Shown here piece after piece: positions 58,208 to 61,383 of a DNA stretch of 64,000 nt; within the stretch, counting starts at the first letter, position 1; the number at the start of each line of letters is the position of its first letter. The stretch is taken from positions 6,866-70,865 of the forward strand of contig CANRGM010000100.1 of NCBI GenBank assembly GCA_947630155.1, in the 5' to 3' direction. The notes beneath the pieces are model-generated. The model worked only from the letters and a program-made list of their open reading frames with translations. It had not been told where the DNA came from and ran no database searches. The DNA comes from an uncultured Clostridia bacterium (lineage in GTDB: Bacteria > Bacillota > Clostridia > TANB77 > CAG-508). Both the position numbers and the translations under genes were made by a program.

Positions 58208-58546
58208 ATGAAAATAATTATAAAAATAGTTATTTTAGCAGTTATAGTATTAATGTCAATTTTTTCAATAAATGTATATGCTACACAAAACCAAACGTCA
58301 GACGAGCAAACTGCTAAAAGTATATTAGATATAAAAACAAAAGAACCTGATGAAAAAGAGGCTTTTATAAAAAAGTATGGTTCAGAAAAGGGAATGTCTG
58401 AATATTGGAAATATAAAATTAGTATCTACTTTATACCATCAATAACGCTCCTTTCAGTAATTGTAGGTATTATATTGGGAATACTTTTAGTAAAAATTAT
58501 TAAGGGTAAAAATAAAAAGAAACAAAAGAATGAATGGAGTGAGTGA
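58208..58546 (+). CDS. Small membrane protein (112 aa; signal/TM and C-terminal TM plus Lys-rich tail)
   Basis: ORF; its 3' end lies inside the left 84-bp direct repeat. Confidence 0.5.
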   Translation: MKIIIKIVILAVIVLMSIFSINVYATQNQTSDEQTAKSILDIKTKEPDEKEAFIKKYGSEKGMSEYWKYKISIYFIPSITLLSVIVGIILGILLVKIIKGKNKKKQKNEWSE

Positions 58547-58579
58547 ATTTATGAAAATATTAGTGAAACAAACCAATAA
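58496..58579 (+). repeat. Left copy of an 84-bp direct repeat (right copy at 61300..61383, about 4 mismatches)
   Basis: ATTATTAAGGGTAAAAATAAAAAGAAACAAAAGAATGAATGGAGTGAGTGAATTTATGAAAATATTAGTGAAACAAACCAATAA compared with the copy at 61300. Confidence 0.8.
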
Positions 58580-58597
58580 TGAAGGAATGAGCAAACT

Positions 58598-59692
58598 ATG
58601 GAAAAGGTAAGAAAAATAATTAATTATGGAAAAGCAGAGGTTTTAAGTATTGAAAAAGAAAAATTATCAAAAGAGCCAGATTTAAGAAATCTATTCTGGG
58701 AAACAACTCTAAGATGTAATTCAAAATGCAAACACTGCGGAAGTAGAGCAGGAGAATGTGATACTTTAAAAGATGAGTTAACAACAGATGAAATAAAAAA
58801 AGCATTTAAAGATATTGCTGAAAAGATTGAACCCAATAAAATTCTAATAAATGTTACAGGAGGAGAGCCATTACTAAGGAAAGATCTATTTGAAGTAATG
58901 GATTATGCACATAACGAACTTGGTTTTAGATGGGGAATTACCACAAACGGCTTACTTATAAATGATGACATTATTGAAAAAATGAAGAAAACAGGCTTAG
59001 CCACTATGTCTATAAGTCTTGATGGACTGGAAGATACTCATGATAAGTTTAGAGGCGTAGAAGGTAGCTTTTCAAAAACAGTTGAAAATATTAAAAAATT
59101 ACAAAATGATAAATTCTTAAGAGCTTTTCAAATTACTACGGTAGTAAACAAGTTGAACATAAATGAACTAAACGAAATGTATAAGTTAATGGAAGATTTA
59201 GAAGTAGATTCGTGGAGAGTTATAAATATGGATCCAATAGGACGTGCATTAGATAACGATAATTTATCATTGGATGCTAATGATTACAAATATGTATTTA
59301 ACTTTATGCAGGAGCAGAATAAAAAATCAAAATTTGACATTACATACGGATGTTCCCACTATTTAGGAATGGACAGAGAATATTCTATTAGAAATTTTGG
59401 ATTCTTCTGTTTCGCAGGTTTTACAGTTGCAAGTATATTATATAATGGTGATATATATGTATGTCCTGATGTTGAAAGAAGAAAAGAGCTAATACAAGGT
59501 AATGTTAAATACGATAATTTTGCTGATGTTTGGTTTAATAAATTTGAATGGTTTAGAAATTTAGATAAGCTTAAATGTGGAAAATGTGCTAACTGTAAGG
59601 ATTGGAAATATTGTAGAGGTGATTCGCTTCACACATGGGATTTTGATAAAAAAGAGCCCAAATTATGTATCAATAATTTATTAAAACAATAA
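58598..59692 (+). CDS. Radical SAM enzyme with C-terminal SPASM domain (anSME-like architecture, no N-terminal RRE)
   Basis: CNSKCKHC (Cx3Cx2C) at residues about 41-48; C-terminal Cys cluster CSHY...CFAGF...CPD...CGKCANCKDWKYC; 364 aa. Confidence 0.8.
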   Translation: MEKVRKIINYGKAEVLSIEKEKLSKEPDLRNLFWETTLRCNSKCKHCGSRAGECDTLKDELTTDEIKKAFKDIAEKIEPNKILINVTGGEPLLRKDLFEVMDYAHNELGFRWGITTNGLLINDDIIEKMKKTGLATMSISLDGLEDTHDKFRGVEGSFSKTVENIKKLQNDKFLRAFQITTVVNKLNINELNEMYKLMEDLEVDSWRVINMDPIGRALDNDNLSLDANDYKYVFNFMQEQNKKSKFDITYGCSHYLGMDREYSIRNFGFFCFAGFTVASILYNGDIYVCPDVERRKELIQGNVKYDNFADVWFNKFEWFRNLDKLKCGKCANCKDWKYCRGDSLHTWDFDKKEPKLCINNLLKQ

Positions 59693-59736
59693 AACAATAA
59701 ATATATTATATAAATTTATCAAGGGAGGTAATTTTT

Positions 59737-60081
59737 ATGAAAAAAATTTTTAAGAAGATATTAGGAGGAATTAGTGCTTTTATAATTGGAGCACAAACAA
59801 AGATATTCGCGGCAAATCAAACAGAAGTATATGGACCACCACCAGACCAACTAATTGATGAAGAACAATACGGTCAGCTACCAACAACATCACATATGGA
59901 AGTTTCATCAACAATAACAGGGGCACAGATTGTGTCAATCATTGCTTCAATATTGTTATTTATTATTGGTGTAGTTGTAATTTTAAATAAGAAAATATCT
60001 AAGAAAGTAAAAATTATAGTTAGCAGTATAATTGCTATATTAATTGTAGGTCTAGTTGTATTTTGCGTATTTTTTAATTAA
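59737..60081 (+). CDS. Small secreted/membrane protein (114 aa)
   Basis: Signal peptide, then a short Pro/Gln-rich segment (YGPPPDQLIDEEQYGQLPTTSH), then two TM helices separated by a KK stretch. Confidence 0.5.
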   Translation: MKKIFKKILGGISAFIIGAQTKIFAANQTEVYGPPPDQLIDEEQYGQLPTTSHMEVSSTITGAQIVSIIASILLFIIGVVVILNKKISKKVKIIVSSIIAILIVGLVVFCVFFN

Positions 60082-60152
60082 GTAACAATATAAGAGGAGT
60101 ATATAAAAAATATGGTTAAGAAAATGGATATTTATGAAAGGTAGGAAAGCAA

Positions 60153-60509
60153 ATGAGAAAAGTAAAAATAATAAGAAAAAAATCAATTTATGGGTGTATA
60201 GGAAAAATAAAAATTTATATGGCTTGTGAAGATGGGGATTTCGAGGTAAACGAAATAAAGTGTAAGCAAGTGGGAGCAATAAAAAATGGAAAAGAAATAG
60301 AAATCGAAATAAGTGATGGTAAGGTATTGCTTATTGCATTAACTGACAAAATGACTAAAGATATAATAAACGATAAAATTTTAATATTAGAAGGAAACGA
60401 AGATTTAACAATCTCAGGTGTGTTTGGGAAAGAAGCAGGATTTATACAAGGCATAAATATAAATGTTTTTAGATTTGATAATGGAATAGAAAACACTCAA
60501 AAAGTATAG
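60153..60509 (+). CDS. Hypothetical soluble protein (118 aa, 3 Cys near the N-terminus)
   Basis: ORF. Confidence 0.45.
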   Translation: MRKVKIIRKKSIYGCIGKIKIYMACEDGDFEVNEIKCKQVGAIKNGKEIEIEISDGKVLLIALTDKMTKDIINDKILILEGNEDLTISGVFGKEAGFIQGININVFRFDNGIENTQKV

Positions 60510-60526
60510 TAAGGAGGTTCAATACT

Positions 60527-61132
60527 ATGAATGATAAAATAAATGAGATATTAAAAAAATATGGAAAACAAAGTTGTCAATATACTACTGTAGTTGATAT
60601 GACTAACGGAAAAACAAGAAGTTTTTCAATCACAATGCTTATATGGATTCCAATAATTATAATAACTACAATTATAATATTAAAAGGTGCAATGATTTGT
60701 AATGATAATGGAGTTGACATTAGTAGTTCAGTATTAGTAATAGTTTGTGTAATACTATATTGGATTGAATATTCAATAATAAATTCTATAATTAGTAAAA
60801 AAGAGAATATTAAAAAGATAATGATTTTAGTAGTAGAAGGAAAAACAACATATTTATATAAATTAAGCAATGAGGCACAATATGAAATTAATGAAACAAA
60901 CATTAAAAATGTAACTTTTGATGATGTATTTGACAATGAAAAGAATAATAAGAGTGGATTTGAAAGATTAAGTGGACATATTGTAAAGATTAATTTAAAA
61001 GATAGTAATATATTACAATTAGGATTTCCAATAGATGCAACTGGTTTATATATAGATAAAAAATGTGTAAATGACTTTTATAATAGCATTAAGAATTATG
61101 AATTAGACTGGAATGTAAAAAAATCTAAATAA
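60527..61132 (+). CDS. Membrane protein with two central TM helices (201 aa; YcxB-like architecture)
   Basis: ORF; hydrophobic hairpin at residues about 35-85. Confidence 0.45.
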   Translation: MNDKINEILKKYGKQSCQYTTVVDMTNGKTRSFSITMLIWIPIIIITTIIILKGAMICNDNGVDISSSVLVIVCVILYWIEYSIINSIISKKENIKKIMILVVEGKTTYLYKLSNEAQYEINETNIKNVTFDDVFDNEKNNKSGFERLSGHIVKINLKDSNILQLGFPIDATGLYIDKKCVNDFYNSIKNYELDWNVKKSK

Positions 61133-61299
61133 ATTGAATATGGAGTTCAATCTTATTTAGCTAGTTAGTTAGAAGGGGGATTTTAAATTTTTTTTTGTCA
61201 TTATTAACAATAGAAAAGTTATTGTTAGTGTTATTAGATGTAATTTCAATAATGATAATTATAGTATTTTTAATTTTAGTTTCGATGTATAGTATTTAG

Positions 61300-61383
61300 A
61301 TTATTAAAAGTAAAAATAAAAAGAAACAAAAGAATGAATGGGGTGAATGAATTTATGAAAATATTAGTGAAACAAACCAATAA
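61300..61383 (+). repeat. Right copy of the 84-bp direct repeat
   Basis: See left copy. Contains a remnant of the C-terminus of the 112-aa gene (IIKSKNKKKQKNEWGE-stop) and the start of the 61355 gene. Confidence 0.8.

Follow-up and report, generated by a model that had tools for sequence, protein, structure and literature searches.

Spliceases are radical S-adenosylmethionine (rSAM)/SPASM enzymes that excise tyramine at XYG sites (PMC11414181, PMC9811515). Type I spliceases need a small Y protein resembling an RRE (the recognition element for peptides that are made by ribosomes and modified after translation), whereas in the binary types, which lack it, a leader helix of the substrate binds the enzyme instead; the reaction also acts on proteins, and its spliceotide products inhibit serine and cysteine proteases (PMC11414181, PMC11626197, PMC9811515, PMC10533398, PMC11002830). 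Native splice tags include PIRPLYGLPI and AVAAGYGVVFP (PMC11414181, PMC10533398, PMC11626197, PMC9811515). Scott et al. (Chem 2022, 8:2659) are reported to have screened all rSAM-SPASM enzymes for Y-G-rich neighbours and to have arrived at 189 genera, 27 verified pairs and 939 predicted systems (PMC10849128, PMC10533398). A second system, the NCBIfam hypothetical equivalogs TIGR04133 and TIGR04134, has been defined by bioinformatics; our literature search returned no relevant paper on these two families and none linking YGPP with radical SAM. Here we describe a gene pair of related type in a 64,000-nucleotide stretch of contig CANRGM010000100.1 (assembly GCA_947630155.1, positions 6,866 to 70,865) from an uncultured Clostridia bacterium, hereafter the window, in which the gene of an rSAM/SPASM enzyme is followed by that of a 114-aa protein with a predicted export signal. 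Judged from their conservation across genomes, these two genes are the functional unit, widespread and uncharacterised, and they probably represent a variant of TIGR04133/TIGR04134 that works like a splicease or a related Tyr-Gly-modifying enzyme. In public annotation the proteins appear only as "radical SAM protein" and "hypothetical protein".

An earlier reading of the window, made without database searches (the sequence-only reading), had placed both genes in a four-gene cassette bracketed by direct repeats. Its inventory of open reading frames (ORFs) in this segment is accurate, but only the rSAM gene and the 114-aa gene are conserved together. The features that matter for this pair are as follows.

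58598-59692, + strand: rSAM/SPASM gene, 364 aa, assigned from Pfam, NCBIfam, invariant columns and an AlphaFold2 model
59737-60081, + strand: 114-aa partner gene, probable substrate
59827-59844, + strand: VYGPPP codons, predicted modification site, from motif conservation across partner types

An rSAM/SPASM enzyme close to TIGR04133

The Cx3Cx2C motif of the enzyme (C40, C44 and C47) is invariant in 23 homologs and lies in a PF04055 match of 93 bits (cutoff 29.5), and the seven cysteines of its SPASM domain (C252, C271, C289, C330, C333, C339 and C357; PF13186, 37.6 bits against a cutoff of 21.5) are likewise invariant. The AlphaFold2 model (pLDDT 89.9) consists of one N-terminal helix (residues 2-25), a partial TIM barrel whose core starts at residue 35, and the SPASM domain. 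No RRE was found by Pfam or NCBIfam or in this model, and no small PqqD-like gene is conserved in the neighbourhoods. The domain matches, invariant columns and model thus confirm the sequence-only description of a Cx3Cx2C rSAM enzyme with a seven-cysteine SPASM domain and no RRE.

The profile search against Pfam and NCBIfam that this reading had proposed returned radical SAM and SPASM, with TIGR04133 as the closest family (302.9 bits end to end) at a score below the curated cutoff of 425. MoaA, the housekeeping family that would have pointed away from a peptide substrate, reaches 82 bits, compared with 303 for TIGR04133. Behind TIGR04133 come AhbD (189 bits), TIGR04053 (169) and NirJ2 (163), far below the AhbD and NirJ cutoffs of 500. 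Ten relatives of the enzyme with membrane-, lipoprotein- and soluble-type partners match TIGR04133 at 308-331 bits over profile positions of about 6-345 of 350, and by these scores the window enzyme and its relatives form a coherent sister clade of TIGR04133 rather than formal members. Among solved structures the closest sequence matches are generic (E ~1e-13). In a fold search the best full-length match is anSME, with a TM-score of 0.70-0.73 in both directions, and the RRE-bearing SuiB, SkfB and CteB match less completely; PqqE and EpeE are also among the fold neighbours.

The enzyme gene and its partner are a conserved pair

At least 351 species-level genomes contain a relative of the enzyme, and the best 80 of these were used for the neighbourhood counts. 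In 65 of the 80 an ORF with Y-G lies immediately downstream of the rSAM gene, and in four more the ORF has the same architecture with Y-A in place of Y-G; further partners, recovered downstream by allowing other start codons or upstream of the enzyme gene, bring the total to about 75 loci. The pairing also holds in the reverse direction: for three independent partner proteins taken from an exhaustive profile search, the C-terminus of an rSAM protein (...GDSLHTWDF..PKLC...) is encoded just upstream in four of four contigs.

The 1.5-kb stretch that carries both genes in the window (58583-60081) is 85-87% identical to two related loci, in each of which it has other neighbours. In L004 it stands between a 213-aa gene and a DUF3592 gene, and in L109 it lies upstream of 217/112-like genes, the order opposite to that in the window. 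Homologs of the enzyme at 82% and 71% identity occur in plain chromosome, in the arrangements hsp33|pair|spoVG and clpC|pair, with a homolog of the partner (104-117 aa) directly 3'. The pair is therefore found in prophage-like as well as plainly chromosomal contexts.

Clostridiales bacterium UBA4362 apparently has two partner paralogs 3' of one rSAM gene (L016, 5050-5350 and 5818-6204). A 485-aa protein (P0114) that looked like a natural fusion of enzyme and partner was rejected as an N-terminally chimeric fragment without the cluster.

For the products of the segment's two other genes, proteins of 118 and 201 aa, neither the 97 rSAM-bearing loci nor viral contigs yielded a homolog, and no family matches either of them. 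The 118-aa protein, one of two candidate substrates in the sequence-only reading, is for this reason not credible in that role.

The chromosomal occurrences also bear on whether the pair serves in defence. It sits in the accessory region of an integrated element with a terminase and serine recombinases, and the PADLOC models of pVip match the rSAM core at 84-98 bits, as might be expected of an anti-phage or toxin-type prophage module such as a viperin-like nucleotide-modifying rSAM enzyme. We consider such a role highly improbable: viperins have no SPASM domain, the pVip match covers residues 33-235 only and TIGR04133 scores three times higher over the full length, and the viperin model NF038283 gives 89 bits against a cutoff of 180. 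Moreover, most homologous pairs lie in ordinary chromosome (between hsp33 and spoVG, or downstream of clpC), and no neighbour matches a defence family. The defence module that had been among the earlier suggestions comes down to the generic similarity of rSAM cores to viperins.

A Tyr-Gly motif is shared by partners of different architecture

The 114-aa partner begins with a signal-peptide-like N-terminus (...KIFA|A), with a predicted mature start at KIFA|ANQTEVYGPPP. There follow V31-Y32-G33-PPP, within ANQTEVYGPPPDQ / ANQTEVYGPPPDQLIDEEQYGQLP, a degenerate Q44-Y45-G46, a transmembrane (TM) segment at about residues 59-84, the basic loop NKKISKKVK and a second TM segment. The degenerate site (E-Q-Y-G-Q-L-P, residues 44-49) aligns with the second VYGP(P/A)P of homologs, suggesting that the second repeat is decaying in the lineage of the window.

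Among 1.84 billion representatives, this membrane-type family of Firmicutes amounts to 166 clusters at 50% identity. Neither Pfam nor NCBIfam has a model for it, and the 114-aa protein itself has no TIGR04134 match even at E<=10. In the family the N-terminus is conserved as MKKxxKKIFGxISxFIxGAQSKxFA, its middle is a region of variable length with one to three copies of Q-T-x-V-Y-G-P-(P/A)-P, and its C-terminus is conserved as SILLFIIGLIVILNKKIxKKVKII, followed by the second hydrophobic helix. The N-terminal segment is only mildly hydrophobic, and 101 of 136 members have a (V/I)-x-A site at its end, with a median distance of nine residues to the first Y-G; at the C-terminus the basic loop is enclosed by two segments of strong hydrophobicity.

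Y-G is present in 138 of 150 family representatives and Y-A in six, and the other six are mostly fragments or chimeras. The density of Y-G is 1.04 per 100 aa in partners, compared with 0.25 in background ORFs. The consensus of the site is Q-x-(L/V/K)-Y-G-(P/V/I)-P-x-P, in one to six copies, with a strongly conserved Pro at +3; at sites collected by searching for Y-G, the residue that follows is P in 85, V in 67 and I in 15, with others in the remainder.

Partners of the wider enzyme clade come in four architectures: TM-anchored, lipobox lipoprotein (...LTGC..QALYGVPPGIQQDLYGVPAP...), soluble (65-966 aa) and zinc-ribbon (...FACIYGPPPMERL...). Only the Y-G motif is constant across them, so that it looks like the target site. 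Lipobox partners occur among the Firmicute relatives of the window enzyme (L051, L058 and L059), and those of L051 and L059 match TIGR04134 weakly (E 0.033 and 0.21). Genuine TIGR04133/TIGR04134 pairs are annotated in the plasmid collection, with the lipoproteins GFSCGENGEIPCEYGSPHANF (Parabacteroides), LTSCYGMPENYY (Treponema) and GFTACDSDGPGNELCEYGTPSADY (Phocaeicola); in these three examples the sites, a feature derived here, come right after the lipobox as C..EYGSP (Parabacteroides), C..EYGTP (Phocaeicola) and CYGMP (Treponema). It follows that x-Y-G-x-P just after the export signal is common to three phyla.

Several details of these partners may be recorded. The soluble partners (L047, L049, L050, L053, L057 and L067) have no signal peptide and carry up to four KY(N/D)IxPEDNVPxxVYG(I/V)P repeats; that of 966 aa has several domains, and its repeats lie in a linker between domains. 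In the zinc-ribbon partners IYGPPP, IYGSPS or LYGSPS stands between two CxxC pairs. In the three genuine TIGR04134 loci (L114, 2153-2995; L115, 2607-2996; L116, 3092-3580; from Parabacteroides, Treponema and Phocaeicola) x-Y-G-(S/T/M)-P lies 0-10 residues after the lipobox Cys, which in Treponema is itself the X residue of the motif, and it is followed by (F/Y)x(I/V)KGxV, like the start of a beta-sandwich domain.

Two more distant rSAM proteins (49% and 38% identical) on IMG/VR contigs have a zinc-ribbon Y-G protein upstream (L095, 4943-5923, and L096, 5714-5995). In L095 pheS/pheT lie directly downstream, so this "viral" contig is probably chromosomal. Spread of the pair by phages was considered and rejected, as these two moderately related enzymes were the only ones on IMG/VR contigs, one of them beside pheS/pheT; the deposited phage records contain no close match.

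The conserved pairing and the Y-G motif make the 114-aa protein the likely substrate, as the sequence-only reading had proposed; its remark that no canonical precursor is evident was too pessimistic, given the conserved and repeated x-Y-G-P motif of this protein. On the same evidence an enzyme-substrate pair targeting Y-G is very probable. The small protein might instead be a membrane anchor, a regulator or an export-coupled receptor, with the rSAM enzyme acting on a tetrapyrrole (AhbD/NirJ-like), a lipid or a cell-wall precursor. AhbD and NirJ2 are indeed among the next-best families (189 and 163 bits), and the N-terminus and TM hairpin (SILLFIIGLIVILNKKIxKKVKII) of the Firmicute partners are unusually conserved, but the AhbD and NirJ scores are far below the cutoffs, tetrapyrrole genes are absent nearby, and the hairpin is dispensable across the family, where lipoprotein, soluble, 966-aa and zinc-ribbon partners keep only Y-G-x-P. 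We therefore rate this alternative as very unlikely.

Proposed mechanism and chemistry

As a whole, the observations are best explained, in our view by a modest preference, by a two-gene enzyme-substrate module in which Y-G is modified before export, with splicease chemistry leading. The cytoplasmic enzyme would modify Tyr-Gly of the unfolded partner ahead of its Sec/YidC-dependent export, in the manner of anSME with sulfatases, and the N-terminal segment of the partner could act as both recognition helix and signal peptide. After cleavage the modified residue would lie close to the new N-terminus, a few residues in, and on the membrane's outer face, where the C-terminal two-helix anchor would display the protein. 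The leading candidate for the modification would be excision of a tyramine equivalent from X-Tyr-Gly; by analogy with spliceases we put this specific reaction forward tentatively, with less assurance than the module itself.

Several observations weigh against this proposal. The enzyme matches TIGR04103, which we take to be the TIGRFAM counterpart of the PlpX InterPro family IPR026482, at 126 bits only (cutoff 725), no better than many other SPASM families do; by this proxy it does not stand close to the type I spliceases. In a few partners Y-A replaces Y-G. Four of the 80 loci (L042, L048, L089 and L093) have no partner, and in L021 the partner is a frameshifted remnant. A cytoplasmic Fe-S enzyme acting on a Sec substrate requires a time window before export, for which anSME is a precedent. 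Finally, conservation of the partner's N-terminal and TM regions exceeds what a signal peptide and an anchor alone would need, suggesting that the partner may do more than carry the modified residue.

The distance from the PlpX-type family (TIGR04103 at 126 bits, compared with 303 for the uncharacterised TIGR04133) would also suit a Y-G-targeting pair with some other chemistry, such as a Tyr cross-link or cyclophane, C-alpha/C-beta cleavage of the tyrosine-lyase type, epimerisation or hydroxylation of a neighbouring residue, or a new reaction. SPASM enzymes carry out many reactions on short motifs (anSME, SuiB, SkfB, CteB, PqqE and EpeE), and the conserved Pro at +3 could belong to the chemistry and not to recognition alone. 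Yet the residue that follows Gly changes (P/V/I/S/T/M) and Tyr and Gly themselves hardly do, a pattern that speaks against a three-residue cyclophane with its cross-link to the third residue; the motif has no Cys for sacti- or ranthipeptide links, and it closely resembles verified splice tags (PMC10533398). A different chemistry at the same motif is possible, in our estimate less so than tyramine excision.

If Tyr-Gly is the target, modification of this kind would be common on the cell-surface proteins of uncultured Clostridia and Bacilli of the gut, given the at least 351 genomes with an enzyme relative, and it would probably apply also to Bacteroidales and Treponema. If the reaction is tyramine excision, formation of beta-amino-acid/ketoamide backbones would extend from secreted peptides to membrane- and lipid-anchored proteins, and compact, RRE-free two-component enzymes would become available for protein engineering. 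As to function, a surface-tethered ketoamide inhibitor of proteases in the protease-rich gut is a speculation that we offer as such. A broader and doubtful proposal would unite the TIGR04133-like enzymes of gut Bacillota, Bacteroidota and Spirochaetota in one system that, ahead of secretion, edits Tyr-Gly where exported lipoproteins and membrane-anchored proteins will later have their N-terminus: the signal peptide would serve as recognition leader as well, the product would be a surface-tethered electrophilic ketoamide or another Tyr-derived group, for example an inhibitor of gut or competitor proteases, and in the lineage of the window the system would travel as the 1.5-kb cargo module. TIGR04133/TIGR04134 in any case gain a concrete and testable hypothesis, the x-Y-G-x-P site right after the lipobox.

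Origin of the 2.7-kb segment

The pair lies between two copies of a direct repeat, and the segment so delimited is flanked by genes for a 112-aa membrane protein and a 205-aa protein.

58208-58546, + strand: 112-aa membrane-protein gene, ending ...KNKKKQKNEWSE; truncated derivative of a 226-aa gene type
58496-58582: left repeat copy, made of the 112-aa gene tail (58496-58527), the ribosome-binding region of the 205-aa gene (58528-58552) and the first 30 nt of a 205-type gene (58553-58582)
58553-58612, + strand: 19-codon stub MKILVKQTNNEGMSKLWKR; it opens with 10 codons of the 205-type gene, with the fusion to the rSAM leader TGAAGGAATGAGCAAACTATG at about 58575-58583
60153-60509, + strand: 118-aa gene, co-inserted cargo outside the conserved system; no family match, no homolog in the 97 loci or in viral contigs
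60527-61132, + strand: 201-aa gene, two-TM protein, co-inserted cargo outside the conserved system
61300-61386: right repeat copy, with the deletion joint 61331|61332 as in the left copy, before the intact 205-aa gene
61355-61972, + strand: 205-aa gene; it and the gene after it are conserved as a pair in related elements that bear recombinases
61997-62458, + strand: 153-aa lipoprotein gene, conserved right-hand neighbour of the 205-aa gene

The repeat copies, 87 nt each, are identical at 82 positions (94%; BLASTN within the window, E 1e-31), so that the 84 bp with about four differences reported earlier were essentially correct. In-register identity is 93-100% inside the repeat and about 30% outside it on both sides, which is background for DNA of 27% GC, and the edges are thus sharp. 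ENA contigs from different samples match the region at 99.8-100%, L001 and L003 each carry both copies, and three independent assemblies agree in this structure; this independent recurrence shows that the repeat is no assembly artefact. As a DNA pattern its core has no match in viral contigs.

The composition of the repeat records its history. In L110 an intact 226-aa gene, whose N-terminal half is homologous to the 112-aa protein of the window, abuts the 205-aa gene. The 112-aa gene is of this 226-aa type minus about 350 bp, with ...AAACAAAA joined to GAATGAATGG in the ribosome-binding region of the 205-aa gene; its last six codons derive from that region, and the joint lies at 58527|58528. 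This lineage-specific deletion joint is present in both repeat copies, at 58527|58528 and 61331|61332, so that a single ancestral 112|205 joint gave rise to both. The 112-aa gene accordingly once adjoined the 205-aa gene, and the 2.7 kb now stand between two copies of their joint. In relatives, 112- and 205-type genes are neighbours with no rSAM gene between them. At the left end the rSAM module's leader (TGAAGGAATGAGCAAACTATG) is joined to the first 30 nt of a 205-type gene; L004 and L109 have the same leader in their other contexts. The right copy reads ...KNKKKQKNEWGE-stop and then the intact start of the 205-aa gene, MKILVKQTNKDLF..., as the sequence-only reading had described; the longer decayed copy of the 112-aa gene that it implied was searched for upstream of the right repeat and ruled out, in-register similarity there being at background, and only the joint was copied.

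The C-terminal domain of the 226-aa type is intact in L110, lost by frameshift in L013 and L109, and lost by the 350-bp deletion in the window. The frameshift in L013 and L109 splits the gene by 1 nt, and in L013 (1141-1200) compared with L110 (6600-6660) it is the loss of one A from a run, GAGAAAAAGT against GAGAAAAGT. In related recombinase-bearing elements the 205-aa gene is paired with a lipoprotein gene of about 151 aa, and the neighbour upstream varies. A metagenome search with the 205-aa protein gave only two short contigs, and one of viral contigs gave no match.

The shared joint and the rSAM-free neighbours in relatives bear out the insertion that had been suggested from the repeats, and we consider it highly probable, from these comparisons, that the 2.7 kb were inserted between the formerly adjacent 112-aa and 205-aa genes. 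Against this stands that the exact empty site, a single 87-nt copy with the 112- and 205-aa genes adjacent, was not recovered among near relatives, which show other states only. The 1.5-kb pair would be a movable module that came together with two unrelated genes as a 2.7-kb segment into the 112|205 joint, duplicating 87 nt. A duplication of 87 nt is far longer than the target duplications made by transposases. None of the four segment genes matches a recombinase, transposase or integrase family, its ends are without reported terminal inverted repeats, and the segment does not have the make-up of a transposon, insertion sequence or integron cassette. The mechanism may have been homologous or homeologous recombination, for example Campbell-type integration of a circle bearing the joint or a crossover of two related elements.

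The neighbourhood also contains other recent and patchy duplications (2 kb at 92% over a C11 peptidase gene, and patches of 90 and 59 nt), and the repeat could be what is left of a local, since decayed tandem duplication of the 112-205 region, or else a recombination linker that paralogous cassettes share where duplication is under way in any case. The order in L109, where the rSAM pair is upstream of 217/112-like genes, is of a kind from which rearrangement within an element could give that of the window. However, uniform decay of a longer duplication would not leave identity at background directly outside the 87 nt on both sides, and the rSAM-partner module occurs at 85-87% identity in two other gene contexts. 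Because of the sharp edges and these other contexts, gain by recombination is favoured and a tandem duplication is unlikely. Under either history the outcome is the same, foreign genes between two copies of one joint. The junction is a clean example of the shuffling of accessory modules at a gene joint in integrated elements without a dedicated recombinase.

Genomic setting

On its left side the window holds ordinary chromosome, that of a gut spore-former, with RNase R and GerA. Further right there are a large-terminase gene, a SpaA/thioester adhesin, two C11 peptidase genes and many small lipoprotein and membrane-protein genes. L001, which reaches past the window, continues with two large serine recombinases and then spoIVA. 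From the terminase and serine recombinases nearby, the segment sits in the accessory end of an integrated element. Related elements end in one or two large serine recombinases beside sporulation genes, spoIVA in L001 (recombinases at 8236-11765 and 11582-12538) and cotJA/cotJB in L004 and L109, and thereby resemble skin-like elements that integrate in or near sporulation loci.

Two stretches of 2 kb (51631-53678 and 55211-57259) share 92% DNA identity, and each contains a gene for a 658-aa membrane-anchored peptidase of the C11 (clostripain) family, the two proteins being 91% identical. Shorter shared patches lie at 50746-50835 and 57548-57637 (90%) and at 51128-51186 and 55153-55211 (86%), and together with the duplication they suggest that the region is in active recombination. 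A link between the C11 peptidases and the rSAM pair was ruled out, as no C11 homolog is found in any related locus.

An ORF of 1153 aa (40727-44188) encodes seven SpaA-type prealbumin-fold repeats and a thioester domain, with internal DNA repeats of 65-69% identity (41870-43261); its product is a surface adhesin or resembles a pilin, and is no phage tape measure. The sole convincing terminator is at 62593-62639. An inverted repeat of 31 nt there (62583-62649), complementary at 97%, with a loop of 5 nt and a T-run on either side, forms a bidirectional terminator between the 153-aa lipoprotein gene and a convergent 301-aa gene whose product has a response-regulator receiver domain. At 27% GC a promoter scan was uninformative (45 hits, 47 expected).

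Comparison with known systems

TIGR04133/TIGR04134 and the window share an adjacent exported partner with x-Y-G-x-P within about 10 residues of the mature N-terminus. The window partner differs in having no lipobox, a site of the signal-peptidase-I type taking its place, and a C-terminal TM hairpin instead of the beta-sandwich domain. Genuine TIGR04133 members are 34-36% identical to the window enzyme, and in Firmicute partners the Y-G motif is often repeated, unlike in TIGR04134.

The enzyme has the size of anSME and, like it, a SPASM domain with two auxiliary clusters and no RRE. The target of anSME is a short motif of a still unfolded protein bound for export, and the same logic is proposed here. 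The two enzymes differ in that they are about 20% identical, that anSME converts Cys or Ser of C/S-x-P/A-x-R to formylglycine, and that it is not among the top NCBIfam matches of the window enzyme. The window partner has neither this motif nor a sulfatase domain, so the likeness to anSME is structural only.

Triceptide (three-residue cyclophane) maturases are rSAM/SPASM enzymes that act on short, repeated motifs beginning with an aromatic residue. In triceptides a conserved third residue would be expected as the cross-linked one, whereas here position 2 is fixed as Gly (Ala in the remaining members) and the third varies.

With the spliceases (PlpX, PcpX, RhaX, RasX and RcsX; Morinaka 2018 Science; Scott 2022 Chem) the pair shares a co-encoded substrate, here a candidate one, with a conserved and often repeated X-Tyr-Gly. 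The clade of the window enzyme may already be among the 939 systems predicted by Scott et al. Splicease substrates are peptides with Nif11 or NHLP leaders, whereas the partners here are exported membrane proteins or lipoproteins. Spliceases accept peptides and large proteins alike (PMC11414181, PMC10533398, PMC10849128). Like the binary spliceases, the pair in the window has two components and no RRE protein, and the contexts LYGVP, VYGPP and VYGIP of the motif in the partners are similar to LYGLP and GYGVV in the splice tags.

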